DNA from: a virus
Reading direction: 5' to 3' (one strand)
DNA length: 64,000 bases
IMG/VR virus record: IMGVR_UViG_3300028197_001229
Location: 21,106 to 85,105 of that record
This document shows positions 2,416-48,807 of this stretch, piece by piece. Position 1 is the first letter of the stretch, and every line of letters begins with the position of its first letter. The notes below the pieces were generated by a model. That model did not search any database. It was not told where the DNA came from and saw only the letters and a list, made by a program, of their open reading frames with translations. A program made the translations under genes and the position numbers.

Positions 2416-3293
2416 TGAAAGCTGCAGTTACACTAGAAAAGTTTACAGCTGAGTACAATTTCGATCCAGACCAAAGAAAAGGTTGGGCACTTATGGTGCG
2501 TGCAACAAATGCAGTTAATATGGACCCGGAAATATTTGTGTATCACAGGATGTTAAATACAGATGCCTATACAGGTGACTTGTTTGAAGCTGTAGCGTCT
2601 GTAAATCAATATTACGAAATACCAAAAAATGCTCCTAAGATCATAAATGAAGATGAATTGATTCCGTACTATAAAAGAAATCAATTAGAGGTATTTGCAA
2701 GAACCCCCAGCGAATTAGAAGAAATTTGGGAGTATATAAAAATAGATGTAAGTAGGTTGGTAGCAGATATAAATTCTACAGATATACTTACTGCATTCCA
2801 AGGAGCTAACATAGCTGACGATGGTGGTTTAGAAACTTACGAAATATCGGAAAATAGAGTGTCCCTGGCTTTAAATTTTATGCCGGCTGGAAACTGGGAC
2901 GGAGAGACAATAACCGATCCCAGCCACGATAAACAAGGTTGGTTACCAGTTACTGAGTTTGAAAATGGAATAGCCGAGCCTATAGACGCTATTCCGGAAC
3001 ATGCTTTGTTCTACTATAACATAGATGCTGACAAAGACTTTAAATTATTTTTTAAAAAATATATCAATAAACCATACAACAATAACATACTGGAACTGAA
3101 TGGGATGATGCTGTTATATGGTAGTGCAGGTGCATACAGCGTGACTAAAGATACAGTGTTCTGGTTAGAAAATAAAAACTGGACAATAGAGGGTACACAA
3201 CAAAATCCTTGGCCGGATGATTATATAGATGGTCTACCGTTATCTTACCTACCACAGTTGCGCCTAATCATGCCTGATTCTCAAAAGACTTAA
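2415..3293 (+). CDS. Hypothetical phage protein, probably structural
   Basis: 292 aa ORF coupled (TAATG) to the upstream structural gene. Confidence 0.5.
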   Translation: MKAAVTLEKFTAEYNFDPDQRKGWALMVRATNAVNMDPEIFVYHRMLNTDAYTGDLFEAVASVNQYYEIPKNAPKIINEDELIPYYKRNQLEVFARTPSELEEIWEYIKIDVSRLVADINSTDILTAFQGANIADDGGLETYEISENRVSLALNFMPAGNWDGETITDPSHDKQGWLPVTEFENGIAEPIDAIPEHALFYYNIDADKDFKLFFKKYINKPYNNNILELNGMMLLYGSAGAYSVTKDTVFWLENKNWTIEGTQQNPWPDDYIDGLPLSYLPQLRLIMPDSQKT

Positions 3294-5514
3294 TATCTAA
3301 GTCGGAAACCTCAATGGGCCCACTACGGCTCTCGTATGTAAACGCTTTTAAATCTAGAGCCAGCCTAATAAATTGAGCTCCAGAATAAGCTAAGTTTTCC
3401 ACATTATTTTCGGTTATTGTAAAGTCAGTACACTCTGTACGTATTATGTGATTTATAATCTTAGGTAGTAGTACTTTGAAGTATATAACATAGTCGTAGT
3501 TTAAACTAAAGTTACTAACGTCTAAACCTTCATCACAAAATATAAAAACTCCATGTTTGTAAAAATCGTGACAGTTGTCCTCACTAAAACAAACTACTGG
3601 GTAACCTTCTATCTCTTCTATTTTAGTACCCTTAGATCGAGTATTAGTATTTAATTCTAATACAGAAGTTTGTCCGAAAACTTCGAACAACTGTATTAGT
3701 AACTTTCTAGATTTTGTACTATCTACCAACCTTACAGTTGGAATATCCCACTTCATATAGGACCGACACAACATACCTACTAATAAGGACAATATAAGAT
3801 TTAATTTTGAATCAAACTTTAGCTTATTAGACTTAGGTAGCATACTGTAATCATAGTTACTAAAAAAAGAACGCTCCGGATGTGGCGTAGCAGTTCGTTC
3901 GGTTACAGTAAAACCAGAAGCTTCCCAAGCAAAACTACGAAAACTAGATCTATCGTCAGACCAACCCAACCTAGCTAGTCCGAATTCTGCTTTGGCAGAA
4001 TTAGCTTCCTGCAGTAATATGTTGTTTAAATATTTGGCGTACCTTGTATCGTAAATTGTGGGTAGTTTAATATTCTCGTTAGTGTCACTAGTAAGTGCTT
4101 TCGTTAAAACTTTTATGACTTCGTAAGGCTGCTGTAAAGTTCTCTTAGAAAACACTACATCTTTAGCGACATCAGATATGTAGGCCGTGCCTTTATAAAA
4201 AACATCTGAACTATTTTTAAACACTAATGTCCTCTTAAGTATTATTGTGAAATTAGTAATAGGTATAGACTCACCATTAAGATCTACATGGTAACCATCC
4301 ACAGTACTCCCCACTTGTTTACCTAATGCTCTGAAGTTTTTATTACTCCGTATAATCTCCTGCCCTGCTAACTCGAGAACTTGTTGTCGTCCAGATTGTT
4401 TTAATTTTTCTATAATCTCAGATCTTATAAGTGCATCTGTAAAAGCGTGACCCATAAATTTAGTTATAGATTCCGTATCTTCTGATTTTTTAGTCAATAG
4501 ACTAAAGAAACTATTAACAACTTTTGCCCTACAACACTTACTTAGCTTAAATGGTTCTAAATAAATATCGTTAGTAATACGTACTCTACTGGCATACTTA
4601 AAATAAACCATCATGCTAGCCAATACTTTACAGTTTTCTGCCGAAACAAGTAATGTCGGTAGTCTGTCGGGCTGTAGTGAGTAACTAAAACTTTTACCCT
4701 TCCTTACACTATTCTTCCTAGACAGTAAAGTGCCGTACCCATTTCGGCTATGTTTCACCATATTATGCCTAGCGTGAGCGAGTTGTGTTATATCATCACA
4801 TATTACGCATATTTGATTATCAGGAGGCATAGTGTGGTAACCTAAGTACCCATGTGCAAATTCTGATTCATAAACTAGTATAAATTTACCAGATACAATA
4901 TCTTCTACAACTACAGAAGCTAAGGTGTGATAACTTGTGTGGTATGTATAAACTAGATAATCACTGCTCGTTGCTACTTTACAAATTTCTTTGGTAAAAT
5001 CTTTAGACTCCCATAAACTTATAAGCTTTTTAAGAGAATCCCCAGACATATAAAACAAAAATTGAGGAATGTTCCCCTGTAACATGTTCTTATTAATTAA
5101 ACTCTCTTTTACAGTTGTAGGTATTTTGATACTTTTCGAACACTTAGCGAACACTCTATTAGCCAAACTAAGGTCTTTCAGATATAGTGCTATATCGTTT
5201 TTCCACCACAATAACGTAGAAGCAACAGTAGGATCAGCACTATCAGAGCTTGCATCTAAGATAGACTCTACAGACTCTAAGTAACTTAGACCCTTTACAT
5301 AAACAATTAGATCAACTATATTGCCATACTGAAACTCAGGATTATAAAACTGTGAAACCAATTCCTTACTTAATACATAAAACGAATTACCAGGATTCTT
5401 TGGATCTTGGAAAACTGGTATGTGGTTTACACTGTTTAGTTCTACTAAACCCAACTCCTTACACACAGCATAGGGCGACCGAAGATCAAAAAGCATATTG
5501 ACTTTAGTGCGCAT
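3268..5514 (-). CDS. Degenerate primase/helicase-like protein (CHC2-finger-like N-terminus, DUF927-like middle)
   Basis: 748 aa; 'YGNIVDLIVYVKGLSYLESVESIL' matches the post-zinc-finger helix pair of DnaG-type primases; 'PITNFTI...GLARLGW..F' is DUF927-like; no intact Walker A. Confidence 0.4.
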   Translation of the reverse strand: MRTKVNMLFDLRSPYAVCKELGLVELNSVNHIPVFQDPKNPGNSFYVLSKELVSQFYNPEFQYGNIVDLIVYVKGLSYLESVESILDASSDSADPTVASTLLWWKNDIALYLKDLSLANRVFAKCSKSIKIPTTVKESLINKNMLQGNIPQFLFYMSGDSLKKLISLWESKDFTKEICKVATSSDYLVYTYHTSYHTLASVVVEDIVSGKFILVYESEFAHGYLGYHTMPPDNQICVICDDITQLAHARHNMVKHSRNGYGTLLSRKNSVRKGKSFSYSLQPDRLPTLLVSAENCKVLASMMVYFKYASRVRITNDIYLEPFKLSKCCRAKVVNSFFSLLTKKSEDTESITKFMGHAFTDALIRSEIIEKLKQSGRQQVLELAGQEIIRSNKNFRALGKQVGSTVDGYHVDLNGESIPITNFTIILKRTLVFKNSSDVFYKGTAYISDVAKDVVFSKRTLQQPYEVIKVLTKALTSDTNENIKLPTIYDTRYAKYLNNILLQEANSAKAEFGLARLGWSDDRSSFRSFAWEASGFTVTERTATPHPERSFFSNYDYSMLPKSNKLKFDSKLNLILSLLVGMLCRSYMKWDIPTVRLVDSTKSRKLLIQLFEVFGQTSVLELNTNTRSKGTKIEEIEGYPVVCFSEDNCHDFYKHGVFIFCDEGLDVSNFSLNYDYVIYFKVLLPKIINHIIRTECTDFTITENNVENLAYSGAQFIRLALDLKAFTYESRSGPIEVSDLDIKSFENQA

Positions 5515-10247: not shown

Positions 10248-10256
10248 AATAAAAAT

Positions 10257-10619
10257 ATGGATGAATTAAACATTTCGGGATCTGGATCTGGTTCATTAAC
10301 TGACCCAGACATACATAACCCAGACCACAAAATAAGTAAAGCAAAACCAACTATAAACAAATCACCGGTATTGTATTTACGGAGAAGGAGAAATAACGAC
10401 TTCCCCAGAGCAGGTGATAGTGGAAGATCAGTAGACAGTAGTATTTGGTACACGGGTAAAGATGGAGACCCGCGTAACGTACAACGTGTAGATGATGGAA
10501 GTATATACCCTAACCACAGCAGTGTTGGTAGAGTAGGTGAGCAAGAGTGGGTAAAGTTTAGAGATTACAAACGACAATTACCAAAATGGGTAAAACAGTT
10601 AGAGTTAAGGATTGACTGA
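10257..10619 (+). CDS. Hypothetical protein
   Basis: 120 aa ORF divergent from terL. Confidence 0.55.
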   Translation: MDELNISGSGSGSLTDPDIHNPDHKISKAKPTINKSPVLYLRRRRNNDFPRAGDSGRSVDSSIWYTGKDGDPRNVQRVDDGSIYPNHSSVGRVGEQEWVKFRDYKRQLPKWVKQLELRID

Positions 10620-10648
10620 ACATAAGCCCAAAGTTTATAAATTTTAAA

Positions 10649-11008
10649 ATGTCCGAAGAAGAAAATAAAGATCCCCAGGAAGAAAATAAAGATCCTCAGG
10701 AAGAAAATGACGAGAGAACATATAGACTCTTGGTTAAACTTTCATTAAAACCTGAAGGGGAAAACGTAAAACCATTTTCTATGGTAGAAACAGAAATGCC
10801 TATACCATTTTTATTAGATAAAGATCAGTTGTTGTTAGCAGAGCCTAGATTTAGGCAGTTACTAGATTCTGTAGTAGAATCTTTTACACTTAAGACTAGT
10901 ATTGAAATTAACAAACTAATTGAACTTAATAAAGATGAGGATGACCAACCGGTTCAAAACCAAGGTCTAGGTATGTCAGATATAGATGAATTAGAAATAG
11001 ATGAGTAA
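10649..11008 (+). CDS. Hypothetical acidic protein
   Basis: 119 aa, A-rich leader, EENKDPQ duplication. Confidence 0.6.
   Translation: MSEEENKDPQEENKDPQEENDERTYRLLVKLSLKPEGENVKPFSMVETEMPIPFLLDKDQLLLAEPRFRQLLDSVVESFTLKTSIEINKLIELNKDEDDQPVQNQGLGMSDIDELEIDE
10658..10708 (+). repeat. 21-bp tandem duplication (about 2.4 copies) encoding EENKDPQ
   Basis: gaagaaaataaagatccccag gaagaaaataaagatcctcag gaagaaaat. Confidence 0.9.
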
Positions 11009-11013
11009 ACAAA

Positions 11014-12126
11014 ATGAAAATTTTATCAACCGCCGACAACCATCTAGGGTTTCGGCAATATGGTTTAATCCAGCGAGAACTGGATATAGAGGATAGTTTT
11101 AGAGCTATTTTAGAATTAGGCGTAAAAGAAAAAGTAGATGCGATAACAGTAAGTGGAGACATACTACATAGTGTACGTCCTACATCACATACAATACAAT
11201 TCCTGAAGAATTGTCAGGAATACTTAAAATACAATAAGTTACTGTGCCTGGTTAGTATAGGTAATCACGATAACTCCAAGCCACACTGGATACGGAATTT
11301 ATCTGAATCTAGTATAGACTACGGGTTTAAGGTTCTTAACGACGAGACTTATGTAGTTGAGAACGTAAGTCAAAAGATAACTGTATACGGTAAAACGTTT
11401 TGTAGTAGAGAAGAGTTTGATACGGGTAACTGTTTGCCGAAGTCGGTGGACATGTTACTAATGCATCAATCATTCAATGAAATAACTACTTTCCCAAATG
11501 AAAAAAGTTTTGGGGTAAGTGATTTTGAAAACGTAACAGCTAAGTTAGTTGTAGTGGGTGATACACACATTCACCGTAAAGGATTGTACACTTTGGATAA
11601 CGGGGGCGAAATAGAAATATGCTCTCCCGGATCTTCAGAACTAATGAGCGAATCAGAAGAGGTGGAGAAGTTTGTCTTCATACACACTTTTTGCGAAGGA
11701 GAACTCAATACAGAATCAGTAGCAATTGATACTAGAAAAGTAGTAAAATTTGAGGTACGAACAGAAGAAGAAGCTGAAAATGCTTTGATTGTTCTGGAAG
11801 AAGTTAAAAAATTAAAGCCACTGGTCTTCTTAAAGTTTGATACTGATATTAAGGATATACTACACAGGTGTAGAAAACAAGTAGACGCGGGAGAGGTTAT
11901 AATCCGACCCAAGCCTATAATGAAAAATATAGACGGTTCTGTAGATCAAGAAAGTAAACAAGATCTTACGTTTTCTGATATATTGAAATCACTTATCCCA
12001 GATAAACCGTCTCAATTTGAACTTGTATCTCAGCTCTTGAATCCCGAGGCTGATGTTAACTCATTAATAGATAACTATGTCGAAACAAGGTTAAAGTATT
12101 TTGACACAACTGAGGAACAGTCATGA
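11014..12126 (+). CDS. sbcD: SbcD/Mre11-like metallophosphoesterase nuclease
   Basis: Motifs 'ADNHLG', 'GDILH', 'IGNHD', 'MHQ', 'GDTH', 'PGS'. Confidence 0.9.
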   Translation: MKILSTADNHLGFRQYGLIQRELDIEDSFRAILELGVKEKVDAITVSGDILHSVRPTSHTIQFLKNCQEYLKYNKLLCLVSIGNHDNSKPHWIRNLSESSIDYGFKVLNDETYVVENVSQKITVYGKTFCSREEFDTGNCLPKSVDMLLMHQSFNEITTFPNEKSFGVSDFENVTAKLVVVGDTHIHRKGLYTLDNGGEIEICSPGSSELMSESEEVEKFVFIHTFCEGELNTESVAIDTRKVVKFEVRTEEEAENALIVLEEVKKLKPLVFLKFDTDIKDILHRCRKQVDAGEVIIRPKPIMKNIDGSVDQESKQDLTFSDILKSLIPDKPSQFELVSQLLNPEADVNSLIDNYVETRLKYFDTTEEQS

Positions 12127-12767
12127 GCGTTCAAGAACCTGTAACCCCCATAAGGATTTATCAAAAAATACCAAACGACGTACTGACAAGACAAAGAACG
12201 TACGCCCGTTACCACCCGTATGGTGGACATAGAGCATTCACAGACTCAAAGTATGGTGACCTAGAAGAAGCTAATGGTCTAAGGATTTTGGGAGAGTGTA
12301 TTAACGCTAACGGTCAAACATTCAATTATTTGTATGACGCACTTAGTGGACATTACCAACAAATTTATGATCCTAGGTTTATACTTACAGTACAGCCCTG
12401 TGAGGGGTGGTTTGATCTTTTTACTCCAGCGTATTTTGGTTTTTATATTGAGTACGAAGACTTAATGACGGAATCTGTAGTAAACATTATATATAGGATA
12501 TACAAAAAAATTATATCGAAATCTAAAAAAACAATTGAGTTTAAAAAACTAAAAAAAGCTGTCACAACAAGTGGTGTGGGTGTCGCAGGTGCTTTAATCG
12601 ATATGTTTAATGTTCGCGTGTTAGAGTATACTGCTACAGACACAGATCGTCTACGGCATGAAAAAGTAAAAGCGTATGAAGTTCATAGTGATTCAACTGA
12701 AGTGCTACGAGAAGCAGCAAACATTCTTGCTATGATGAAGTATGGAGTAGATCCAGTTAAGATATGA
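12123..12767 (+). CDS. Hypothetical protein between sbcD and sbcC
   Basis: 214 aa with ATGA overlaps at both ends. Confidence 0.65.
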   Translation: MSVQEPVTPIRIYQKIPNDVLTRQRTYARYHPYGGHRAFTDSKYGDLEEANGLRILGECINANGQTFNYLYDALSGHYQQIYDPRFILTVQPCEGWFDLFTPAYFGFYIEYEDLMTESVVNIIYRIYKKIISKSKKTIEFKKLKKAVTTSGVGVAGALIDMFNVRVLEYTATDTDRLRHEKVKAYEVHSDSTEVLREAANILAMMKYGVDPVKI

Positions 12768-14992
12768 AAATTAAAAAAATAACACTTAATAATTTCGGTA
12801 TACATCGAAATTTATCATTTGAGATTGGAGATGCTCCAGTTGTTGGTTTACTCGGCAAGAACGGATCTGGTAAAAGTACAATACTAGATTCTGTAAAGTA
12901 TGCACTTACAGGTGAGATCGAGGGAAAAATAGAAGATTCAGTAACAATAGGTGAGAAGAAAGGTTTTGTTGAATTACTAATAGAAAAAGACGGAGCTAGT
13001 ATACGCATAAAGCGAGAGGTAGGTAAAACACCCAAAAAAGAATTCGAGAAAGACGGTAAAGTAGTAACTAGCTCAAAAGAAATTGAGAGCGAAATACAAG
13101 GAATGTTATCTGTTGATAAAAAAGCATTGTCCAATGCCTGTTTTCTAAAACAAGGTAGTTTAAATGACTTGTTGTTTGGTACAGAATCCTCGCGTGAACA
13201 GTTGTTTATAAAGCTAGTCAATCTCTCGTTCTGCGAGAGATATGCAGCAGTAGTAGATACAAAGCTAAAGTCATTACAGGCAGGTGTTGAAGATTTACAA
13301 GGCTTGACTGACGAAATAAACATTCAGCGTATGGACTCTATTGTAGAGAAAGAACTGCTTGAAAAACAACTAGCTAGAGTAACTGACTACAAACCTATAA
13401 CATCTGTCGTTTACGAACAGATCAGGCTTTCGGATGAAAACGAAAGACTATCTAGAGAGATAACACTGATAGGGTCCGATGATAAACTTACTAAAACTAC
13501 AATCGGTACTATTAACCTTAGGTGGAATACTGTGGACAGAATACAACTTGAAGATAAGTTAAAAGAATCCAGAAATAGTTCAACAGAGTTATTGCAGAAA
13601 AAATCTAATGTAATTAGTGAAAAAAATGCAAAAATACGGTATGAAAATACCCTACAAAAAATAACAGAAACTAAAAATGAAATCGAAGACCTAGAAAAGT
13701 TAATTACTAGTAACGATACTAGTCTAGAGCAGTTAGTTATACCAGATACTAATATAGAAGTTTATAAAAAAGAACTAGACGATGCTAAAGACTCAATAAA
13801 AAAACTAGGTATGTTACTATCAATATATCATACGTGTGACAGTGAGTCTGCAACGTGCCCTACATGTGGGTCAGATATATCCAGTAAATTAAATTCTGGA
13901 GATGTCGAAACTTGGAATAAAGAACTAAAAATAGCAGTTGCAGATAAAGGATCAGTAGAAGTTAAAATAGCAAAAGATACCGAACGGTTCAGTAACTATG
14001 AACTCACCAAACACAACCTGATGTCGGAAAACCAAATAAATAAAATACGTTTGGAACATATGACTAAGGATTTTCACCGATACACCGAAAGTATGGTGAG
14101 CTTAATGGATGGTGCCAACATAGGTAGTAAAGAAAAAGAATTAGAAACTATAAACCAAGCTATAAATGAACAAGATGCTACTGTAAAACTATTGGAGCAA
14201 GATCTGTATAGAGTTATCGAGGCCGAGACAAAGCTTGCAAACAACAGCAGCTTTGTAGTTAGTAAGAAAGCTATGCTAGACTCAAATCACACAAAAAGTG
14301 TAACAAACTCAAAAAACATACCTGAGTTTTTAGAGTCTCTAAACCTTAGTGATTTTATAGGACTAGATAATGAAAAATTAATAAAAGAATTAGAATGCTT
14401 ACAGTTACAACGGTCGGAGGCTGAGGGTAGGTTAAAACAAGCTAGTGAATCATTTGATAAGATAAATAACAGGTATGCTGAGGTACAAGACAGAATGACT
14501 AAAAATAAAAGTCGACTGGCTGTTGCTGAAGAGTTACGTGAAATAAAAGAAATTTTATCAAAAAAAGGACTACCTAGCGCTTACATAGCTCACAAGTTTA
14601 CGATACTAGCAAAACTCACATCAGAAAACCTGACGATTCTAAATGCTGATTTTACAGTAGATATAGATCCAGACGCTTTTCTTTCATTCGTTTTTGAAAG
14701 ATTTGACGGAAAAGATATGGTGCGGTTGCCTATGAACAGACTGTCAGGTGGACAAAAAGTACGATTGTGTATTGCATTCTTACTGTCCGTACAACAAGAG
14801 CTCGTACCAGATATAGGTTTCCAGACATTTGACGAACCGTCTACGCATTTAGACGAAGATGGCGTCGAAAGACTATGTTCTATGTTTAAGAGTTTACAAG
14901 ACTTGTTAAGGTGTATAGACCATCAAGTGTGGGTGTGTGATCATAATCCTTTACTTGAAGAATCTTTTAGTACAACCTTAAATCTGCAGTGA
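12764..14992 (+). CDS. sbcC: SbcC/Rad50-like SMC ATPase
   Basis: Walker A 'GKNGSGKST', Q-loop 'FLKQG', coiled coils with zinc hook 'CPTCG', signature 'LSGGQ', Walker B 'FDEPS', H-switch 'CDHN'. Confidence 0.92.
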   Translation: MKIKKITLNNFGIHRNLSFEIGDAPVVGLLGKNGSGKSTILDSVKYALTGEIEGKIEDSVTIGEKKGFVELLIEKDGASIRIKREVGKTPKKEFEKDGKVVTSSKEIESEIQGMLSVDKKALSNACFLKQGSLNDLLFGTESSREQLFIKLVNLSFCERYAAVVDTKLKSLQAGVEDLQGLTDEINIQRMDSIVEKELLEKQLARVTDYKPITSVVYEQIRLSDENERLSREITLIGSDDKLTKTTIGTINLRWNTVDRIQLEDKLKESRNSSTELLQKKSNVISEKNAKIRYENTLQKITETKNEIEDLEKLITSNDTSLEQLVIPDTNIEVYKKELDDAKDSIKKLGMLLSIYHTCDSESATCPTCGSDISSKLNSGDVETWNKELKIAVADKGSVEVKIAKDTERFSNYELTKHNLMSENQINKIRLEHMTKDFHRYTESMVSLMDGANIGSKEKELETINQAINEQDATVKLLEQDLYRVIEAETKLANNSSFVVSKKAMLDSNHTKSVTNSKNIPEFLESLNLSDFIGLDNEKLIKELECLQLQRSEAEGRLKQASESFDKINNRYAEVQDRMTKNKSRLAVAEELREIKEILSKKGLPSAYIAHKFTILAKLTSENLTILNADFTVDIDPDAFLSFVFERFDGKDMVRLPMNRLSGGQKVRLCIAFLLSVQQELVPDIGFQTFDEPSTHLDEDGVERLCSMFKSLQDLLRCIDHQVWVCDHNPLLEESFSTTLNLQ

Positions 14993-15474
14993 TACTTGAA
15001 GTTAAAATAATTTTAACAACAAACTACTTAGGTGGTGGACCCCGGGTAAATGGGGTCCGCCAGTTAAGACGTACTCACGACAACAGACTTGCTGTTAACG
15101 AAAAAGAATGGAAAGAAGATATGGCGGCAGCAGCAGCAGATTTAAAGTTAGACTTTAATAAGAACAGTGTAAGTTTAGAGCCGGGTATAGACTTCCCAGA
15201 AGTTAATGTACTAAAACGAGTATATAATAAAACAAATGTAGATCTGTTTGAAGGTGTATCAGCGGGTAATGAATTAGTATTCTCTGTGCGAATTAATGAA
15301 AATTTAGACAACTCACCAACAAAAGAAGATTTAATAAAAATATTTACCGTAGTTGGTAAGTTTATAGGTATATCCCAATTCGGTAAAAAGTTCCATTGCG
15401 GGAGGTTCACAGTTAAAACAATAATCATTTTAGGAGAAAAAGATTTTAATGTTGATAAAGATATTCTGGTTTAG
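14989..15474 (+). CDS. Stand-alone RAMP (Cas7/Csm3-like RRM-fold) protein
   Basis: N-terminal strand 'VKIILTTNYLGGG', helix 'EKEWKEDMAAAA', 'FEGVSAGNELVFSVRI' (E-x3-G-x3-F strand) and C-terminal G-rich loop 'GKFIGISQFGKKFHCGRFTV' follow the RAMP pattern. Confidence 0.6.
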   Translation: MILEVKIILTTNYLGGGPRVNGVRQLRRTHDNRLAVNEKEWKEDMAAAAADLKLDFNKNSVSLEPGIDFPEVNVLKRVYNKTNVDLFEGVSAGNELVFSVRINENLDNSPTKEDLIKIFTVVGKFIGISQFGKKFHCGRFTVKTIIILGEKDFNVDKDILV

Positions 15475-16897
15475 CGGAAGCTTAACAGTAATGGGGTCTT
15501 TCAAAGAATTAGAAAAAGCCCTGACGTATACGAAAAAATCTTTAGATTGGAACCCAGCTAAAGGTAGAAGAGAAACAAAAAGAACAGTTGAAAAGCTGTA
15601 CAGCATAGTACATCCAGGCCCTGAGAACAGGACTATTATGACTATGCAGGGTTTTAAAAACAAAGTTTTAGAAATATGTAGAAAACATAATAAAGCTATT
15701 GAGTTTTATGATCATCGACGAGTAATGCCGGATCCTAAGCTTAATTTAGCTGGAAGCTTTAGATTCAGTCAAAAAGAATTGTTTAATGAACTAATGTCTA
15801 AGGGAGAGTCAGGATTACTAAAAGCACCTACTCGTTACGGGAAGACTGTTATGATAGCAAATGCAGCTAGAGTATTTCCTAGAACTAAGACAGTTGTAGC
15901 AGCCCCGGGAGTTGATTTACTTAACCAGCTAGTAGTACAGTTAAGAGAATGGTTACCAAACAGAGAAGTTAAAGGAATATTTACCGGATCTAGAAATAAA
16001 ATACCATCAAATGATATTACTGTTTGTTCTTTTGATAGTTTGCAAAAACTAAACGCTGAAGATGTACATTTACTACTTATAGACGAGCCACACGCAGCGG
16101 TGTCAGAAAGTAGGGCTCCGTTACTAGCTAGGTTTAGGAATGCTAGGATTTACGGATTCGGAGCAACACTAGAAGGTAGGTACGATGGTGGTGATAAGCT
16201 AATAACCGGTTTGATAGGACCTATACATGCTAGTAGATCATTTACAGAAGCTGTAGAAGAAGGTGCTATTTGTCCTATCAAAGTTTATTTCTTAAAAGTA
16301 CCATTCGAAGCTTGGCCTTGTTCTACTAGAGACGCTGCTTACAGGAAACTTGTATGGAAAAATACTTATCTGTTTGAGTTAGTAAGAGAATTAACTCGAT
16401 CTGTAATACCAACTGAGTGGCAAACCTTGATATTTATAGATCAAAAGAAACAAGCCGATATGTTATCAGAGTTTGTGGACGATAGTGAAGTAGCAATAGC
16501 TGGTCGTATGAAAGCTAAAGATCGTAAAGCTTTGTTTGAAAACATGGCGGCTGGTCATATAAAGCGCTGCATAGCGACTAGCATATACGCCCAGGGAGTT
16601 ACATTTCCAGATCTTAGGGTCATGGTTAACGCATCGGGAGGTGGTGGATCGATATCATCTATACAAAAGCCCGGTCGTCTAGCTCAAGTCATAGATGGGA
16701 AGTCTAAGGGTTACCTTATAGATTTCAAGCTAGAGTGTGTGAATGACCCAAGAGAAAATAGTAACGAAGCTATATCCGAAAACTCTGTTATGTGGCAGCA
16801 GGTGGTTACAGATTGTGACAACAGAATGCGTACTTACAGAAAAATGGGTTACGAAGTTGAAATAGTAGAATCTATAAATGATTTAGAATTAGTTTAA
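15449..16897 (+). CDS. Superfamily 2 DNA helicase (UvsW/XPB-like)
   Basis: Motif I 'APTRYGKT', II 'DEPH', III 'GAT', V 'AQGVTFPDL', VI 'QKPGR'. Confidence 0.85.
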   Translation: MLIKIFWFSGSLTVMGSFKELEKALTYTKKSLDWNPAKGRRETKRTVEKLYSIVHPGPENRTIMTMQGFKNKVLEICRKHNKAIEFYDHRRVMPDPKLNLAGSFRFSQKELFNELMSKGESGLLKAPTRYGKTVMIANAARVFPRTKTVVAAPGVDLLNQLVVQLREWLPNREVKGIFTGSRNKIPSNDITVCSFDSLQKLNAEDVHLLLIDEPHAAVSESRAPLLARFRNARIYGFGATLEGRYDGGDKLITGLIGPIHASRSFTEAVEEGAICPIKVYFLKVPFEAWPCSTRDAAYRKLVWKNTYLFELVRELTRSVIPTEWQTLIFIDQKKQADMLSEFVDDSEVAIAGRMKAKDRKALFENMAAGHIKRCIATSIYAQGVTFPDLRVMVNASGGGGSISSIQKPGRLAQVIDGKSKGYLIDFKLECVNDPRENSNEAISENSVMWQQVVTDCDNRMRTYRKMGYEVEIVESINDLELV

Positions 16898-16898
16898 T

Positions 16899-17483
16899 AT
16901 GATAGATTATGACCTGTTAGAAATTGAAAACACAGCAACAAAATTAAGAACGTTATTCATTGATAAAAAAACAAAGCAACTAGGTCGTAGTTATAGACCT
17001 AGCAGAAAAATTGATACAAAAGAAAATTGGAATAAAGCAGCTATAAAGTGTGAAGCATTAGACGCGCGCCCGGAAGATTTTATAAACTCAGTATTTGCAT
17101 CTGAAGTTGGTAAAAAACATGGAGGACCCTACGTTAACCACCTACACGGTATCATGTGTGAAAAAGCATATGAGAAGTATGAGTTAGCAGGTGGTCACTT
17201 AATAGAAGAAAATAAATTGTTGTCAGAACTAAAATCTGCAACAAATCAGTGTTTTTCTGCACTTAAATATCAAGGTATTACCGCAGAAGAATATTTGTTA
17301 AAAGACACAGTACCAATAAGTTCTTGGATACGTTTGTACTTTTGTCAGGGTTCTAAGCGAATATGGCGTAAGTATGTAAGCTCTACTAAAAAAGAAATGA
17401 TTGTAAATAGCGGTATTGAAAAACTGCTACGTAAGTTTAAATTTAAAATAGAAAAGATTTATGAGTTTGATAAGTACGGTTAA
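16899..17483 (+). CDS. Hypothetical basic protein (possible helicase loader by position)
   Basis: 194 aa overlapping the start of the DnaB-like gene. Confidence 0.55.
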   Translation: MIDYDLLEIENTATKLRTLFIDKKTKQLGRSYRPSRKIDTKENWNKAAIKCEALDARPEDFINSVFASEVGKKHGGPYVNHLHGIMCEKAYEKYELAGGHLIEENKLLSELKSATNQCFSALKYQGITAEEYLLKDTVPISSWIRLYFCQGSKRIWRKYVSSTKKEMIVNSGIEKLLRKFKFKIEKIYEFDKYG

Positions 17484-18855
17484 AGAAAACCCAACTATTG
17501 TTGAAAACCAGATTATAGCAGCGTTTATAGGATCCAAAAAGTTCTTTTATGACTATGGAGAAAGTATACGAAACCTATCATCTGAGTTAGGACCCAGGCA
17601 CAGTAAATTTGATAGTTATATCAATAAGATAATCTTTGAAGCAATATGTGAATTCAGAGATAAAGCAAAAGCCGAACTCGTGCCTATGGAGTTTATTACA
17701 GACTACATTGACGGTTGTAAGGTAGGAGGCAGGTTATTACCCGAAGAAGCGGAAAATATAAGTACATACCTTTCGGGTATATATACTAGGGCTAATACAG
17801 ACACAGCCAGTTTCATACGTGGCGATTTATTTGACGCTTGGTTCGATGCTGGAATGGTAGATAGTATAATGCAGTTATCTCAATCCGCAGATACAGCTGT
17901 AACTATAGATGACTTAGAAGTTAAGTTACGTAGAATAAAAATTGCCAAATCAAGACAAGAGAAGAAATCTTTGTCGTTTATTGAGGGTATGCAGACTGAG
18001 CATGACGATGGCTTTGTAATACCAACAGGTATACATACGTTAGACGACAAGTTAGCTGGTGGCTTTAGACGTGGAGAATCCACAGTCTGTGCAGCTACCA
18101 CTGGTGGTGGTAAAACTGTACTAGCTTGTCAGTTTGCAGCTCAATGTGCAACTATGGGTCGTAAGGTAATATTTGTTACTACAGAGCAGCCTCCATCCGA
18201 GCTAACACCTAGGTTTTTAGCAAATCAATGTGCTATACCTTTTAATATGTTTACACAAAACCCAAATCCGGGAAACTCGGTTATACCACCGGAAGTATCT
18301 AATGTTAGGAAATATAGTTTAAAAATTATAAGTACAATTTCTGCTATGAATGCTAACATTAAATTTCTAGATTGGTCACAAGGTGGCGGACAATCAATAG
18401 AAAATGATTTAGATGCAGCTATAGAGGCAATAATGGAAGATCCAGAAGATGAGTTTCCGGCGGAGGTTATAATATTTGACTGGTTAGGTGGCGCACTAAA
18501 AAAAGATAGTAATAAAGATTTGCGTATTATGTACTTAGAAGGTGCCGAACACTTGCATGCTATGGCTAAACGAATGCGTTTGTCTGTAATATTGTTTGCT
18601 CAGCTTAATAAAGTAAAAGCTTACAATAAATGGAGATGTGATTCATCAATGCTAGCAGAGTGTACATCCATCCCGGATAAAGCCTCTAATGCTATATATG
18701 TAAGTACAAAATTAAATGATGACCTATCGGGACCAAACATAGCGCAAAAGTTTAACGTAGATAAAGCACGTAAGGGAACTGGGGGTATGATAGATATGCT
18801 CCGAGACTTTGGTTACCAGCGTTTTATGGTACCATCTGGAACTAACAGTGTTTAA
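17461..18855 (+). CDS. dnaB: DnaB-like replicative helicase
   Basis: 'IPTGIHTLD', Walker A 'ATTGGGKT', 'FVTTEQ', Walker B 'IIFDW', 'FAQLN', arginine finger 'KARKG'. Confidence 0.85.
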   Translation: MSLISTVKENPTIVENQIIAAFIGSKKFFYDYGESIRNLSSELGPRHSKFDSYINKIIFEAICEFRDKAKAELVPMEFITDYIDGCKVGGRLLPEEAENISTYLSGIYTRANTDTASFIRGDLFDAWFDAGMVDSIMQLSQSADTAVTIDDLEVKLRRIKIAKSRQEKKSLSFIEGMQTEHDDGFVIPTGIHTLDDKLAGGFRRGESTVCAATTGGGKTVLACQFAAQCATMGRKVIFVTTEQPPSELTPRFLANQCAIPFNMFTQNPNPGNSVIPPEVSNVRKYSLKIISTISAMNANIKFLDWSQGGGQSIENDLDAAIEAIMEDPEDEFPAEVIIFDWLGGALKKDSNKDLRIMYLEGAEHLHAMAKRMRLSVILFAQLNKVKAYNKWRCDSSMLAECTSIPDKASNAIYVSTKLNDDLSGPNIAQKFNVDKARKGTGGMIDMLRDFGYQRFMVPSGTNSV

Positions 18856-18857
18856 CT

Positions 18858-19865
18858 ATGGAAACTAATAATACGGAAATGGAACTTTGTGTTATAATGA
18901 ATAAATTTTTTAAAAGAGGAGATTGGATACCTGATGCTTTTAAGAAAATATTTAAACTAAGATCCGGGACAGATTTACCAACATGTGTGGTATTTAGTAA
19001 AATAGTATATTGGTTATCTCCTAAAAAAAATGGTAAGAAACGATACTATGGTAAACAGTTAAAATTAAGTGTATCCAATATTTCCGAGCAGACCTACTTG
19101 TCAAAAAAACAAGTTAGTCATGCTATGGAAAAGTTAGAAAAAAAATATAAGTTTATTAACAGAACAGTAAACGGTACGACAGTTTATGTTAGTCTAAATG
19201 TAGAGATAATAGAAAAAGTTTTAGAAAATAGCTTTCCAAATATGTTTAGCAAAAACGAAGTAGCTATACAAATTTGTAACACTCATATACATAAAGAACA
19301 GCATAGACCATTTCTTTCTAAGTTTCCGAAGGGAGTAACTGAACTTAATTATTGTGACAAAGATCAAATTATCGAAGAGGTTGAAAAATTAGAAATTGCT
19401 TTGAATACGAAGCAAAATGAAAAGTCTATGTACTCAATGTCCGAAGATAAATTTTATTCAATATGTAGAACTACAAAATACGCTTTAAGAGAAAAGCTAA
19501 ACTATATGTCTGAAGCTGAATTAATAGAGGCTTTTATAGTTGATGACGAATCGTCTTATCCAGCTTTCTCTAGATTTGTGTTTTTGTACAATAGTTTGTA
19601 TGAGCATTACGTAGGTTATCTTACAAGTAATGACGCTGAGTTTAAAAACTTGTTACAAACTGTGTCAGTAGAGTGCATATCAAATTTAGATGTGTACAGT
19701 AATTTATTAGTAGCATGTAGGGGTTTGGACGTAAAGTTGTTATCCGTTACTAGTGTAGCCGATTTAAAGTTAAAAAATAATTTAAAATTAACTACGCTAG
19801 AATCAGAGATAAAAACTTACGAACAAACCCTGTGCTCATTACGACAACATTTAACGTCGATTTAA
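18858..19865 (+). CDS. Winged-HTH DNA-binding protein, possibly a replication initiator
   Basis: 'VFSKIVYW...LSVSNISEQTYLSKKQVSHAMEKLEKKYKFI' resembles the N-terminal wHTH of phage initiators; lies directly after dnaB. Confidence 0.5.
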   Translation: METNNTEMELCVIMNKFFKRGDWIPDAFKKIFKLRSGTDLPTCVVFSKIVYWLSPKKNGKKRYYGKQLKLSVSNISEQTYLSKKQVSHAMEKLEKKYKFINRTVNGTTVYVSLNVEIIEKVLENSFPNMFSKNEVAIQICNTHIHKEQHRPFLSKFPKGVTELNYCDKDQIIEEVEKLEIALNTKQNEKSMYSMSEDKFYSICRTTKYALREKLNYMSEAELIEAFIVDDESSYPAFSRFVFLYNSLYEHYVGYLTSNDAEFKNLLQTVSVECISNLDVYSNLLVACRGLDVKLLSVTSVADLKLKNNLKLTTLESEIKTYEQTLCSLRQHLTSI

Positions 19866-19869
19866 AAAA

Positions 19870-20259: not shown

Positions 20260-20260
20260 G

Positions 20261-21696: not shown

Positions 21697-21917
21697 ATAA
21701 ATTGGAAGACGAAATAGTTAAATTGAGCTACACAGCTAACATGTTGCAATCAATAATCGATAGATTAAATAAATGCTCTATAAACCTAGATTCGGATCCC
21801 GATCTTTCCTTAAGACTAAAAAGTATTCTTTATTACCAAGGTTGTGGTGATTACAATCGTACTTTGTTTGAAACTATTGATCTAGATAAAAATATTACAA
21901 AAAAGTGTCAGAAATAA
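21693..21917 (+). CDS. Small hypothetical protein
   Basis: 74 aa coupled to both primase and polymerase. Confidence 0.5.
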   Translation: MNKLEDEIVKLSYTANMLQSIIDRLNKCSINLDSDPDLSLRLKSILYYQGCGDYNRTLFETIDLDKNITKKCQK

Positions 21918-24900
21918 AACGTCAGCTGGCAAAAGGCGAGTACCCTGAGTGGTGCAAGTCTAGCCCGCCAAATTCGTTAAATAAAAATAGAACTATAGAT
22001 GGTGTACTTCACTTTGCAGGTGTGGGTAAAAAACCTGCAGATGTTATGTTTGTTGCCCCATGTGTATTATTCGAGGAGGCTAATGATCGGACATCTCCGG
22101 CAAGACTATTAAAAGGTCCAGCATCTAATCTGTTTTTACGGAATCTAAAAAGAGTTGGTTTTAACACCGACGAAATATATTATACAACATTATGTAAATA
22201 CACACTTCCAATGGGTCGTAACATGCGCCCAAAGATGGAAGATTTACGTTGGAGTCAAACAATAATTGAAAAAGAGATTGAAGAAGTATCTCCTAAAATA
22301 ATTGTTTGCTTGGGGAAACAAGTTTTTGATTTCTTTGTTGATTTCAAAGCTACATTTAAAGACGTACACGGTGGGTTTTTCCACAGTACTTATTATGACT
22401 GTTTGGTTTATGTTACGGATCAGCTTACTACTTCTTTCCTTAAGCCTGAATACATAAGTCGTTCCATAACCGATTTAGCTTGTGTAAAGCGACATCTAGA
22501 CGATGTAGCTGGAGTAGGTATACCCACACACCCAATAGACTATAAAACAGTCTCTACACGTACTGAGTTAGTTAAACTGTTTTCTGATATTGAAGCTCTT
22601 AAGCCCTCTGTACTAAGTGTAGACTGTGAGTGGGCAGGTGATACCTATATTAGTGGTACACTAAGATCTATTCAGCTATGTTGGGCACCGGGTAAAGCAG
22701 CTTACATAATGTTCAGGGACCAAGCCGGTTTATGGGTTTGGGATAAGCCGCAACCAGACATCTATAAACAAGTTGGTAACTTTCTTAACAAAGGTTATAA
22801 GTTTATAGGTCATAACTTGTGTGCTGACTTTATGTGGATGCATCATTGTTTAGGTGTTGATACTTATCAGAAATGTGCGTTTGACACTATGTATGCTGAG
22901 TTCTTGTTAGATGAGTATGCAGACTTAAAGTTAGAACGTTTATCACTTAAGTACACGGACCTCGGTCGTTACGACACAGAGTTATTCTTAACTAAGAAAA
23001 AATTAAAAATAACATCTGATGAAGGTTATGGTCGTATACCAGACGACGTACTTATACCTTACGCTTGTAAGGATGTGGATGTTGTAATGAGGGCTTATCC
23101 CATTTTACTACAAAAGCTTTATGCGGAAAAATTAAATTCATATTATTTCGATATAAACTTACCATATGTTGCCGACTCGTTTTTTGAAATGGCTCTTGCC
23201 GGGTTACCTATAAATAGATCTTATCTAGATGTAATGCGCTCGGTGTTCACAAATAATGAAACTCTGCTACTGCTCGAGCTTAGGATGAGTCTTAAAGAAG
23301 AAGCTAATCTCTTTCTAGCAGAAAAGCTCTACAAAGCATTCGGCCAAGCTGGTTACACTCTGTTTAGTGAATTGGTTCAACTAGACAATCGTAGATTTGA
23401 ACTTAGAGAACAACTGTATACTTACCCAGAGTTAGATACAACATATGTTCCTTGGGATTCTGCTAAATATTCTTCTGCAAAAATTATTGCGATGTATTCT
23501 GAACCACTTGAAATAAAAGAAAATTTATCTTCAAGTGAAAAATCTGAATGTATTAAAGAACTAACAGATGTACATAATAAATGTTTAACTAAACTTAAAA
23601 GCCTAGTAAATCCGGAATCGTTTCCTGAATTTCTACCTTTGTTTGAGCATTGGTGGGACGCAAATGAGTTTAAAATAAGAAGTGATGCTCATAAACGACG
23701 TTGGTTATTTTCTGTAAAAAAGTTTGAACCTGTAAAGACTACTAAGAAAGATGGTGTCCAAATGCCCTGGGAGTCTGTTTTGAAGTTGGATAAAGCTAGA
23801 CAATTAGAGCATTCACCATCTACTGATAAGGAAACTATACAAATACTATCTGAGAAATGTATTTTAGTTTCTCGGGTCTTGGAGTTAAACTCTGTAGGCA
23901 ACATTGTGAAGATGTTTCTTAAAGGTCCAGATGCTAATGGTAAAGAACAAGGTCTACATAAATGGATACAATCTGATGGTAGGCTTCACTGTAATTTTGC
24001 TACAACAGAAACTGGTCGTCCTCGTACTTGGAATCCTAACGTATTGAACTACCCAAAAGCTATTACACGTCCGATCGAAGCAGCTTTCAAGCGGTTAGGT
24101 CAGGACAAACCTTACAGCTTACGATCATGTGTAGAGGCTCCAGAAGGTTGGTGTCTTGTTGACGCTGATTTGGAAACTGCAGAGGTGCTTGGATTAGCTT
24201 ATATATCTGGGGATGATGAGATGATAGATGTCTGTTCTTCCGGAGATAAGAACTTCGTACAGATAAACTCGGATAAAGCAGAAGAATATTCCATACCGTG
24301 GATTCGCTTTAAAGGAATTGATTGTGCCAGGTTAGAAAATATAGCCGATCACGACGATTGCTTGATACTTGATAACTCTGGTGAGTACATACGACCGCTT
24401 AGGGATATGCACTGGGAGATGGCCGAGACAATGCACAGTAAATCTAGAGAAGAACTAGATGCGGATATAGATAGGCTTGCTGGTAAGATAGGTATGTTTT
24501 CTATACCATATGGTGCGTCACCTAAGTTACTCGAAAGAACCATTGAGAGTATCACAGGTATAAAGCCTGATCCGGATATTGGTGAAAAGTTAATAGATGC
24601 TTATGAAACTAAGTTTCCTGTAGCTGCAGCTTTTCTGAAAGCACAGGAAGCTTGCGTAGAGGAGCCCGGTTACTATAGATCGATATCAGGTAGGGTTCGT
24701 CATTTTCATACACATGGGTTATCTACAGAAGGTTTATCGGAACGAGCCCGAAAGTCTCTAATGGCTCCACTAGCTAGGGAAGCTAGGAACTATCCTATGC
24801 AAGAGATTGTTGCTGCTACTATGGCTAGAGCTGTTAATTCTTTAGTTGCTGAGTTTAAAGCACGCGGTATGAGTGCTAGACCTATGATACTACTACACGA

Positions 24901-25090
24901 CGCATTGACTGTACTTAGTCCTATAGAAGAAAGATGGGAAGTCCGAAAACTTTTGCAGAAATGTATGAGTGACGGTACAACCTGGGATGTTAATAGTAAA
25001 ACACTTCAGTTTGCTATAGATGTTGACTTTTCATTTAGGTGGGGTATGAAACCATCTAAAGAAGAATCATTATTACTAAACACACAATAG
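21905..25090 (+). CDS. polA: Family A DNA polymerase with N-terminal UDG-like domain and 3'-5' exonuclease
   Basis: UDG family-4-like N-terminus ('ADVMFVAP..EE', 'EIEEVSPKIIVCLGK'); Exo I 'VDCEW', Exo II 'GHNL..DF', Exo III 'YACKD'; Pol motif A 'DADLETAE', B 'K...FSIPYG', C 'HDAL'; 'TGR'. Confidence 0.9.
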   Translation: MSEIKRQLAKGEYPEWCKSSPPNSLNKNRTIDGVLHFAGVGKKPADVMFVAPCVLFEEANDRTSPARLLKGPASNLFLRNLKRVGFNTDEIYYTTLCKYTLPMGRNMRPKMEDLRWSQTIIEKEIEEVSPKIIVCLGKQVFDFFVDFKATFKDVHGGFFHSTYYDCLVYVTDQLTTSFLKPEYISRSITDLACVKRHLDDVAGVGIPTHPIDYKTVSTRTELVKLFSDIEALKPSVLSVDCEWAGDTYISGTLRSIQLCWAPGKAAYIMFRDQAGLWVWDKPQPDIYKQVGNFLNKGYKFIGHNLCADFMWMHHCLGVDTYQKCAFDTMYAEFLLDEYADLKLERLSLKYTDLGRYDTELFLTKKKLKITSDEGYGRIPDDVLIPYACKDVDVVMRAYPILLQKLYAEKLNSYYFDINLPYVADSFFEMALAGLPINRSYLDVMRSVFTNNETLLLLELRMSLKEEANLFLAEKLYKAFGQAGYTLFSELVQLDNRRFELREQLYTYPELDTTYVPWDSAKYSSAKIIAMYSEPLEIKENLSSSEKSECIKELTDVHNKCLTKLKSLVNPESFPEFLPLFEHWWDANEFKIRSDAHKRRWLFSVKKFEPVKTTKKDGVQMPWESVLKLDKARQLEHSPSTDKETIQILSEKCILVSRVLELNSVGNIVKMFLKGPDANGKEQGLHKWIQSDGRLHCNFATTETGRPRTWNPNVLNYPKAITRPIEAAFKRLGQDKPYSLRSCVEAPEGWCLVDADLETAEVLGLAYISGDDEMIDVCSSGDKNFVQINSDKAEEYSIPWIRFKGIDCARLENIADHDDCLILDNSGEYIRPLRDMHWEMAETMHSKSREELDADIDRLAGKIGMFSIPYGASPKLLERTIESITGIKPDPDIGEKLIDAYETKFPVAAAFLKAQEACVEEPGYYRSISGRVRHFHTHGLSTEGLSERARKSLMAPLAREARNYPMQEIVAATMARAVNSLVAEFKARGMSARPMILLHDALTVLSPIEERWEVRKLLQKCMSDGTTWDVNSKTLQFAIDVDFSFRWGMKPSKEESLLLNTQ

Positions 25091-26546: not shown

Positions 26547-27821
26547 ATGCCAAGAAAGAAAAAAATAGTTGAAACTCCTAGTTGTGAGTTCAATCTTTTG
26601 GAAGACAATAGTTTTTCAGATCAAGTAAAAGAAACAATGTTGGCTATGGCCAGCAAACGAAAGTCAGCATCCTCTGTTACAGCTATGTCTGATCTACAAC
26701 GTGAGTATGTAACCTTAGACAGTTTTTACATGCAGGCAACCCTGGGTATGTGTGGTCTCCCGCATGGTACACTGTTAGAGATATTAGGACAAGACGGTGT
26801 GGGTAAGAGTTCTTTGATATTTACCATAGCAGGCAATGCTATGGCACAAGGTTCTCCATTTTTTTACGTGGAGACAGAAGGTAAGCCAATGAATGATGAA
26901 CGTGTTCGTAGGTGTCTACATCCCGACCCAACAGCTGCAGAAAACATTTTTTCTAAAATTACTATGCAGACTTGCGATGACATACCAAGTATGGTTGCAG
27001 CGTTAGAAGATTTTGTAGAAGTTTGTCGTAACCAGATTGGCGTGCCTAAAAGTACTCCACTTGTTTGCGCTGTAGATTCTTTTTCAAAGCTTATGTCTCC
27101 TAACGAAGCTATGGGTAGATCGTTCTATGCTGAGGATGCTAAAAAGAAAGAATTTGGTACTGACAAGGTCAATTTTGGACATAGTAAATTTGCTCATCAG
27201 TGGTGTAGAATACTTCCATCTTGGTTAAAGCAGAACAATGTTGTGTTAATGATTGTATCGCACCAGAATCAGCAAGTAAGTACAGGTTTCGGTGGTGGCA
27301 GTTTTATGTCACCTGAGGTTGCTGCAAGCTATAACCGTACAAAGATTGGTGGTAATGCTTTTAATCAAAACGCAGCATTGCAATTAATACTTACACGTAA
27401 GGGTGTGGCAAAACGTGGTACAGAAAAAGTGGGTTCTATAATAAAGGCAACTGTGGCAAAAAACTCTTACGGGCCGGAAGGCGGATTCTTTGAGTTTGAA
27501 GTAGTAGGTCGCCCATACCTCGATACTGAGACATGGAAACAACCTTCTCTTTATATGGGAAACACTACAGCAGCTTGGCTAGCTACTAACAAGCACTGTG
27601 GTGTAGTGGAAACCCGAAAACGTTATTCGTGTGAAGAGTTGAATATAGTTGGTGAAACAGCAGAAGACTTTTATCCAAAATTTATGGATAGTCATCTCAA
27701 GGACGAACTTGGTTCTCAACTTAACATTGTTGGTTACACTGTTACAGACACTGCTAACGACGAACTTGAAAAATTAGAAGATGAAACTGAGCAAGTACAA
27801 TCTGAAACTGACACTGAGTAA
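26547..27821 (+). CDS. recA: RecA/UvsX-like recombinase
   Basis: 'GLPHGTLLEILGQDGVGKS' Walker A, 'YVETEG', 'AVDSF', 'IGGNA', 'KNSYG'. Confidence 0.85.
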   Translation: MPRKKKIVETPSCEFNLLEDNSFSDQVKETMLAMASKRKSASSVTAMSDLQREYVTLDSFYMQATLGMCGLPHGTLLEILGQDGVGKSSLIFTIAGNAMAQGSPFFYVETEGKPMNDERVRRCLHPDPTAAENIFSKITMQTCDDIPSMVAALEDFVEVCRNQIGVPKSTPLVCAVDSFSKLMSPNEAMGRSFYAEDAKKKEFGTDKVNFGHSKFAHQWCRILPSWLKQNNVVLMIVSHQNQQVSTGFGGGSFMSPEVAASYNRTKIGGNAFNQNAALQLILTRKGVAKRGTEKVGSIIKATVAKNSYGPEGGFFEFEVVGRPYLDTETWKQPSLYMGNTTAAWLATNKHCGVVETRKRYSCEELNIVGETAEDFYPKFMDSHLKDELGSQLNIVGYTVTDTANDELEKLEDETEQVQSETDTE

Positions 27822-48656: not shown

Positions 48657-48807
48657 ACTTAATTAACAATCTTTTTAATAAAGATTTTTTCTTTTTGACA
48701 ATACGAGGACTAGGGAATCTACCCCAGTTCCCCATGCCATCGTAATCCATCGTGTCATGTTTATTGGTCATATAAATATAACGAATTATAACAACTACAG
48801 GTTCACT

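Follow-up and report, generated by a model that had tools for sequence, protein, structure and literature searches.

A conserved 161-residue protein in a phage Mre11-Rad50-helicase gene block as a putative reduced and guide-independent relative of the minimal RAMP Vipr

A stretch of 64,000 nucleotides of viral DNA (hereafter the window; positions 21,106 to 85,105 of the IMG/VR virus record IMGVR_UViG_3300028197_001229) contains an open reading frame (ORF) at 14989..15474 (+) that encodes a protein of 161 amino acids (aa), here called ORF161. In the most likely reading, this protein is a much reduced form related to Vipr, the minimal RAMP of phages. The gene is a fixed member of the block Mre11 - Rad50/SbcC - 161-aa gene - XPB-like SF2 helicase - DnaB in a lineage of large uncultured phages, and its product may serve there as a guide-independent, Vipr-like subunit that binds single-stranded nucleic acid within a recombination/replication module, a reading to which we assign a probability of roughly one half. 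An RNA-guided role, as proposed in a preliminary description of the same DNA, is not supported. The source record, referred to as G000, is a linear virus contig of 85,105 bp that is 48% complete according to CheckV, and negative results for it are to be read with this completeness in mind.

The first accounts of VIPR (Viral Interference Programmable Repeat) date from 2026, and in the view of their authors the CRISPR RAMPs descend from it. Vipr is presented as a minimal RAMP of ~20 kDa that occurs mainly in phages, and its vrRNA, with 9-16 YNNGG repeats and a 3' tail, as encoded in intergenic DNA beside vipr; the loci carry accessory vap genes and are divided into seven types, some with nuclease or helicase partners (10.64898/2026.04.26.720920). 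The structure of Vipr by cryo-electron microscopy has an RRM core, helix 1, a G-loop, a thumb and an alpha-bundle, and the Vipr of SUSP1 reads GGY by H17, R138, D177, W178 and R179 (10.64898/2026.04.26.720927). Escherichia phage SUSP1 is the example of a Type II VIPR (PDB 36pp). Non-canonical pentamers and orphan vrRNAs are also in print (10.64898/2026.10.21.760802; 10.64898/2026.10.15.759431). The solo viral RAMPs that the preliminary description had referred to under the name of VIPR do exist, being the subject of three 2026 preprints, with a fourth mentioning VIPR.

The gene for ORF161 overlaps both of its neighbours and has no intergenic flank; it is part of a long replication/recombination block whose genes share one orientation. 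It begins with a GTG within a GTGA that overlaps the TGA stop of the 742-aa SbcC-like ORF, and the ORF of the superfamily 2 (SF2) helicase begins at ATG 15449, 26 nt inside the 161-aa ORF; this start, and hence the overlap, is taken as real because helicase residues 2-14 are conserved in a relative (locus L002). In L002 and L003, too, the GTG start of the family member abuts or overlaps the sbcC stop. Promoter-like and terminator-like sites were no commoner in 10000-22000 than in shuffled sequence, which fits a single long transcription unit. The two overlaps from which the preliminary description had argued for translational coupling are present, and so are the four motifs that it quoted, in the order given, at residues 5-17, 41-49, 88-102 and 123-142, where they coincide with the most conserved columns of the family. 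The protein can be divided into an N-terminal strand (5-12), a conserved helix with W41, a hairpin motif with R77 and E88, a glycine-rich loop (G123-G138) and a last strand (R139-V142). An identical protein is found in a protein database on a 175,442-bp contig, and the stretch is also present, with at least 99% identity, in an independent marine DNA run. Marine metatranscriptome contigs cover parts of 12-18 kb but not 14989-15474, an observation that shows neither transcription of the gene nor its absence.

ORF161 is a genuine gene, far beyond chance. A word-indexed protein search returned 13 proteins of 150-161 aa at 44-100% identity (alignment A1), and a HMMER search of 1.84 billion cluster representatives returned 105 at E<=1e-3 (43 at <=1e-10 and 3 at <=1e-30), nearly all of them 130-220 aa long. 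In an alignment of 88 members (A2), from which fragments and partial matches were left out, the conserved positions are L14 (87/88), G15 (81/88), R24 (76/88) and W41 (71/88) towards the N-terminus, R77 (82/88) and E88 (87/88) in the middle, G123 (88/88), G127 (87/88), S129 (85/88), an aromatic residue at 131 (87/88) and G132 (87/88) in the loop, and K134 (65/88), G138 (88/88), R139 (80/88) and F140 (87/88) at the C-terminal end. E88 is the sole near-invariant acidic residue, the others being Gly, Arg, Ser and aromatics, and the family is mostly basic (median pI 9.2; 70 of the 88 members above 8). By analogy, the invariant Gly/Arg/aromatic loop appears to be of the kind that binds the nucleic-acid backbone in Vipr and other RAMPs. 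In the searches made here the family was found only in uncultured phage and metagenome data: three members had no tblastn match in 50,697 GenBank phage records, the 6.5-kb gene block had no blastn match in GenBank phages, the SF2 helicase had no match in the GenBank phage collection at 1e-10, and one peptide-pattern scan of 185,579 prokaryote genomes returned no family member.

The position of the gene is strictly kept. Three family sub-alignments were used to fetch 14 viral loci, one of which (L016) was dropped as the same record as L010, and in 13 of the remaining 13 the family member lies between the SbcC-like ORF and the SF2 helicase on the same strand, with 0-1 small ORF between; the preliminary description had named this sbcC-RAMP-helicase order in related phages as a point to check, and it holds in every viral locus. 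These loci range from 65% down to 25% identity to ORF161, have a GC content of 37-62% and lie on contigs of 34-204 kb; they include the near-duplicates L007/L008, L014/L015 and L004/L005, and in L014 and L015 the family ORF, which the ORF filter had dropped, was placed by tblastn coordinates. Among 21 metagenome loci (of which L029 and L031 duplicate viral records and L035/L036 differ hardly at all), SbcC is directly upstream in 16, the remaining five having <=430 nt of upstream flank, and the helicase is downstream in 16, the remaining five having <=610 nt of downstream flank. Adjacency to and co-orientation with the Rad50-like and helicase genes are thus conserved across divergent genomes of one broad lineage. 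A related TerL is common to all these phages, and the closest cultured phages, Salmonella phage Arash and some Vibrio phages, are distant (~24% TerL identity).

Similarity to Vipr is observed at the level of profiles. When the A2 profile was compared with all PDB sequences, 'SUSP1 Vipr protein' (36pp) ranked second at E 0.055. Homologues of Vipr numbered 529 at E<=1e-3, and 38 of 120 listed were aligned as A3 (the SUSP1 clade). With hhalign, A2 matched the single SUSP1 Vipr at 84% and A3 at 94.1% (E 1.3e-7, score 54.1) over 55 columns, which comprise the strand before the last helix, the last helix, the glycine loop and the last strand. Reversed alignments scored 12.2 and the best of 30 column shuffles 19.9, with a probability of <=1.5%, while the subclades A1, A4 and A6 matched the same region of A3 at 84%, 94% and 89%. 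The signal above these nulls falls exactly in the segment that the preliminary description had singled out as a terminal glycine loop. With hmmsearch, 126 of 129 Viprs outscored the best reversed control of the A2 model (median 10.9 bits, top 23.7), and 109 of 118 family proteins outscored that of the A3 model (median 8.6 bits, top 23.3). A low-stringency alignment of A2 with A3 is collinear from residue 1: the first strands of the two coincide, the W41 helix falls on helix 1 of Vipr, and a gap opens at the Vipr bundle (Vipr residues about 18-60). In a language-model atlas, the named clusters closest to two members include PF03787 RAMP clusters (0.81 and 0.82, scores below 0.9 counting as a lead only); for the second of these members, 8 of the ten best family-bearing matches agree on RAMP.

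What the family would have kept from Vipr is strand 1, helix 1 and the C-terminal strand-helix-glycine-loop-strand unit, and what it would have lost is the alpha-bundle, most of the thumb and most of the GGY-reading residues. ORF161 is 30-130 residues shorter than the Viprs examined, and by its length and the low-stringency alignment the bundle segment probably has no counterpart in the family. The column of D177 holds P in 45, Q in 35 and D in 1 of the 88 members, that of R179 holds G in 87 and H in 1, and that of H17 is variable, with no His among its six commonest residues; R138 is not alignable. Only the W178 position, aromatic in 87/88, is retained among the alignable GGY-reading residues. 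We infer a RAMP fold, nucleic-acid binding and a partnership with Rad50 and the helicase. The reading as a nucleic-acid-binding subunit follows from the position kept down to 25% identity, the start-stop overlap, the basic character of the protein and its Gly/Arg/aromatic loop. Binding would be to single-stranded DNA or an RNA/DNA hybrid, independent of any guide, by a RAMP-type surface of helix 1 and the G-loop; translational coupling would keep the protein in step with Rad50 and the helicase, and it may take part, alongside Mre11-Rad50 and the XPB-like helicase, in recombination-dependent replication and in the processing of ends.

Guide arrays of the VIPR kind were sought with four scans, namely an exact YNNGG regular expression, GG at period 5, G at period 5, and any two fixed columns in ten pentamers. 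In SUSP1, whose vipr gene and four vrRNA arrays were located in the GenBank record, all four arrays were recovered with no false positives in 50 kb, and the array of the relative G001 (described below) was found too. The window has no YNNGG x4 by the regular expression, and one 5-unit NNNGG match at 32346-32370; the 85-kb record has no GG or G period-5 run, and the general scan gave 15 isolated A-only or T-only low-complexity windows in it, mononucleotide shuffles giving 2-8. The complete 196.5-kb relative G003 has the gene and no period-5 array, the general scan giving 5 A-only or T-only windows, and no array was found by the period-5 scan beside the gene in the 13 viral and 21 metagenome loci. 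A G-rich window in L042 was rejected as an array, as it lies inside the coding sequence of a gene of 65% GC. Tandem Repeats Finder found no guide array in the sequence, Rfam at gathering thresholds returned two tRNAs only, and the only direct repeats in the window are coding repeats of period 12-21. The layout of vipr plus one vap gene with long intergenic flanks is absent at 14989-15474.

The preliminary description had proposed an RNA-guided module with a guide acting in trans, and for this proposal the 85-kb record, the complete relative and the related loci offer no period-5 array; that most of the GGY-reading residues of Vipr are not kept weakens it further. None of the three regions suggested as guides has a period-5 pattern. 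That at 51196-51755 is a terminator-ended structured RNA, for which a BLAST search of five relatives (the closest of them 94% complete), run with no positive control, gave nothing; that at 54298-54546 is an ATGATAT iteron tract with ~10-nt spacing; and that at 48700-48760 is a short gap after tRNA-Met. As observations in their own right, 51196-51755 is a gene-free region of ~550 nt that ends in a strong hairpin and a T-run terminator, and 54390-54530 is non-coding, with about ten ATGATAT-type iterons 9-12 nt apart and an 18-bp palindrome before them, a tract that looks more like a replication origin or a protein-binding/operator array than a pentanucleotide guide. The statement that there is no CRISPR locus stands for the window, in which no repeat-spacer array was found, the models of cas1, cas2, cas3 and cas10 not having been run individually. 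A six-frame search of the 85,105-bp record with PF03787 was negative, while 8 of 14 control genomes gave a match, and the PDB profile search with the family returned no Cas protein. The label of a Cas7/Csm3-like gene was not borne out, as ORF161 has no Pfam RAMP match and a single member of the 88 reaches PF03787, at E=0.12.

A VIPR locus that appears complete is present elsewhere in the lineage. The closest relative, G001 (167 kb, 94% complete; 64% identical), carries it ~60 kb from its ORF161 homologue, in L012 (G001:C1:94000-101000), with a vipr ORF at 4134..4994 (-) and non-coding DNA at 3052..4133 (-). The Vipr homologue has 286 aa and is matched by the Vipr HMM (hidden Markov model) at E 1.3e-11 and by hhalign at 98.1% over 175 columns; after the gene comes a 1,082-nt non-coding tract of period 5 with the consensus GnTnn (252 of 281 qualifying windows), a non-canonical pentamer, and a 7-nt punctuation motif recurs 7 times in the array. 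No homologue of the G001 Vipr or of its flanking genes, the latter sought by tblastn, was found in the 85-kb record. In the complete 204-kb relative G004, 37 nt at G004:C1:75826-75862 (L011) resemble GGT-NN, with 8 units and 3 mismatches, below the thresholds of the period-5 scan.

Several results weigh against the reading of ORF161 as a Vipr-like protein. The similarity is local, covering 55 columns, and rests on one Vipr clade; the PDB search in which Vipr ranked second was topped by HIV gp120 at E 0.038, which places that search by itself at noise level. A second Vipr type (A5, the protein of G001 aligned with 7 homologues) matched A2 at only 0.9%, and the two true Vipr types, A5 and A3, match each other at 98.1% over 175 columns. 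A plain Vipr HMM found nothing at E<=10 in G000, G003 and G004; the same model recovers the Viprs of SUSP1 (E 3e-83) and G001 (E 1e-11). The 161-aa protein fits none of the families in Pfam, PHROGs, NCBIfam and PADLOC, the 88 members gave scattered chance-level rows only against curated families, and in PHROGs 2 of the 88 weakly match phrog_4652, a family of unknown function, and nothing else. Finally, the loci represent one broad uncultured phage lineage, and the gene order may be largely inherited rather than independently selected. The family is at best a distant, reduced relative of Vipr. Possible, at a minority probability, is a small non-RAMP protein of another fold with a convergent glycine-rich C-terminus, which would regulate either the Rad50-like ATPase or the XPB-like helicase or serve one of them as a protein-protein adaptor, such as a loader or cofactor. 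Such a protein would explain the short match, its failure with the second Vipr type, the silence of the Vipr HMM and of the Pfam RAMP models, and strict adjacency with overlap of sbcC and helicase, which suits an accessory subunit of either. It would not explain a Vipr similarity well above the reversed and shuffled nulls that three subclades reproduce, an alignment that is collinear over the whole length at low stringency, an atlas that independently points two members to RAMP clusters, or Gly, Arg and aromatic residues that are invariant as in nucleic-acid-binding G-loops.

A true VIPR-type effector that polymerises on a trans-encoded guide RNA and directs nuclease and helicase to a target is very improbable. 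Its Vipr-like C-terminus would suit such a role, half of the genome is missing from the record, some VIPR types have nuclease or helicase accessory genes (10.64898/2026.04.26.720920), pentamers can be non-canonical (10.64898/2026.10.21.760802), and G001 has both a Vipr gene and a 1.08-kb GnTnn array ~60 kb away. The array of G001, however, adjoins its own, different full-length Vipr, of which G000, G003 and G004 have no counterpart; G003, which is complete, has the gene without a period-5 array of any base pattern, and none of the 34 loci has an array beside it. D177 is kept in 1/88 and R179 in 0/88, leaving the aromatic residue of W178, and, to judge by length and alignment, the family lacks the alpha-bundle and much of the thumb, the parts that set the gapped code; the proposed guide regions lack a period-5 pattern, and the 550-nt RNA was not found in five relatives. 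A small nuclease that works with Mre11-Rad50 and the helicase, either a junction resolvase or a stand-in for archaeal NurA, is also unlikely. The size of the protein is typical of resolvases, and its gene has a Rad50-like gene on one side and, on the other, that of a helicase with a possible role in branch migration or DNA opening, but E88 (87/88) is a lone near-invariant acidic residue and no nuclease family was matched in Pfam, PHROGs, NCBIfam, PADLOC or PDB sequences.

Coordinates of ORF161 and the annotated genes of its block in the window
Feature	Position	Strand	Basis
Mre11/SbcD-like phosphoesterase, 370 aa	11014..12126	+	Pfam Metallophos E 1.2e-7; BLAST-detectable in 12/13 viral loci (not L009)
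214-aa ORF between Mre11-like and Rad50-like genes	12123..12767	+	No Pfam or PHROG match
Rad50/SbcC-like ABC ATPase, 742 aa	12764..14992	+	Pfam AAA_23, SMC_N; PHROG 77; archaeal Rad50 in PDB E 4e-19
161-aa Vipr-like (putative minimal RAMP-like) protein	14989..15474	+	ORF, family, Vipr profile match
SF2 helicase, 482 aa	15449..16897	+	Pfam ResIII, Helicase_C; PDB archaeal XPB/RAD25 E 3e-10
Conserved 194-aa ORF between helicase and DnaB-like gene	16899..17483	+	No Pfam/PHROG family; BLAST-detectable in most related loci
DnaB-like replicative helicase, 464 aa	17461..18855	+	Pfam DnaB_C E 2.8e-16
Family A DNA polymerase, 3'-5' exonuclease, UDG-like N-terminus	21905..25090	+	Pfam
424-aa protein, weak RecA-family match	26547..27821	+	Pfam RecA E 2.2e-6, 27.8 bits vs cut-off 27

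The family A polymerase marks the block as a replication module, a DEAD-box helicase is also encoded further along it, and the 424-aa protein with the weak RecA match is a possible recombinase of the module. In the polymerase, a UDG-superfamily segment (Pfam UDG E 1.2e-7) precedes the 3'-5' exonuclease domain. The closest solved relatives of the SF2 helicase are archaeal XPB/Rad25 and XPBII (E ~1e-10), not helicases of the UvsW or RecG types, and an XPB-like helicase adjoining Mre11-Rad50 in a phage is unusual in itself. Pfam found no OB-fold single-strand-binding protein among 16 proteins of the block, nine of which have no significant match, and the 414-aa ORF at 20452-21696 had no Pfam match. 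The two ORFs that flank the Rad50-like and helicase genes on their outer sides (12123-12767 and 16899-17483) were rejected as paralogues of ORF161 (hhalign against A2, 0.1% each). Outside the block, perfect coding tandem repeats of 15 nt x 6 and of 12/54 nt lie at 37392-37484 and 63225-63343 and encode Glu/Lys/Pro-rich peptide repeats in ORFs of the structural region.

VIPR itself is already known, and the novelty of a reduced Vipr-like family is conditional on its fold; an array-less, reduced Vipr-like protein fixed in a phage recombination block was not found described in the literature searched, the VIPR supplementary lists lying outside that search. A more specific form of the Vipr-like reading, put forward tentatively and at a minority probability, is that of a RAMP not tied to guide RNAs: a miniature protein of ~150 aa, bundle-less and short in the thumb, that is a core guide-independent nucleic-acid-binding subunit of a phage Mre11-Rad50-helicase recombination machine. 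Were this correct, the RAMP fold, on which VIPR and later CRISPR rely for RNA guidance, may have its origin, or have found a further use, in a housekeeping protein for replication and recombination in phages, and the family would be the simplest known form of the fold. A confirmed fold would mean a RAMP-type protein with a non-defence role, fixed among the replication/recombination genes of a whole phage lineage. The RAMP tree could then be rooted with the family as an outgroup or intermediate, and the protein, as a minimal scaffold, would help to tell which parts of Vipr are responsible for handling guides in a sequence-specific manner. Without such confirmation, phage Mre11-Rad50-helicase modules would still have gained a new accessory gene that is well delimited and has distinct conserved residues.

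Among known systems, Vipr resembles the family in being phage-encoded, small and single-domain and in lying outside any cas operon, and the two share an N-terminal strand of the pattern 'I-x-(I/L)-T-x-x-P-x-L' and a C-terminal strand, helix and glycine-rich loop with an aromatic residue, followed by 'G-R-F-x-V' (hhalign 94%). They differ in length (~150-160 aa in the family, ~190-290 aa in Vipr), in the alpha-bundle and thumb, of which the family seems to lack the former and to have shortened the latter, in the equivalents of D177 (Pro/Gln) and R179 (Gly), and in the absence of any detectable match between the family and the second Vipr type. Unlike vipr, which forms a two-gene locus with vap, the family gene has neither flanking intergenic DNA nor a pentanucleotide array and is embedded in the overlapping Mre11-Rad50-helicase-DnaB block. 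The CRISPR RAMPs (Cas7/Csm3/Cmr4, Cas5, Cas6; PF03787) also have a glycine-rich loop ahead of the last strand, and the atlas places the family in weak proximity to their clusters (0.81-0.82); in contrast to them, ORF161 is much smaller than Cas7-type subunits, has no Pfam RAMP match, and is encoded beside Rad50-like, Mre11-like, helicase and DnaB-like genes in a window with no CRISPR array. Accessory genes are also known from Mre11-Rad50 operons, such as archaeal HerA-NurA and the partners of phage T4 gp46/gp47. ORF161 has no sequence similarity to these in PDB, Pfam or PHROG and its residue pattern is not nuclease-like, but it has in common with them that a small gene is kept beside the Rad50/Mre11 pair and a helicase, which suggests a role in end processing or recombination.

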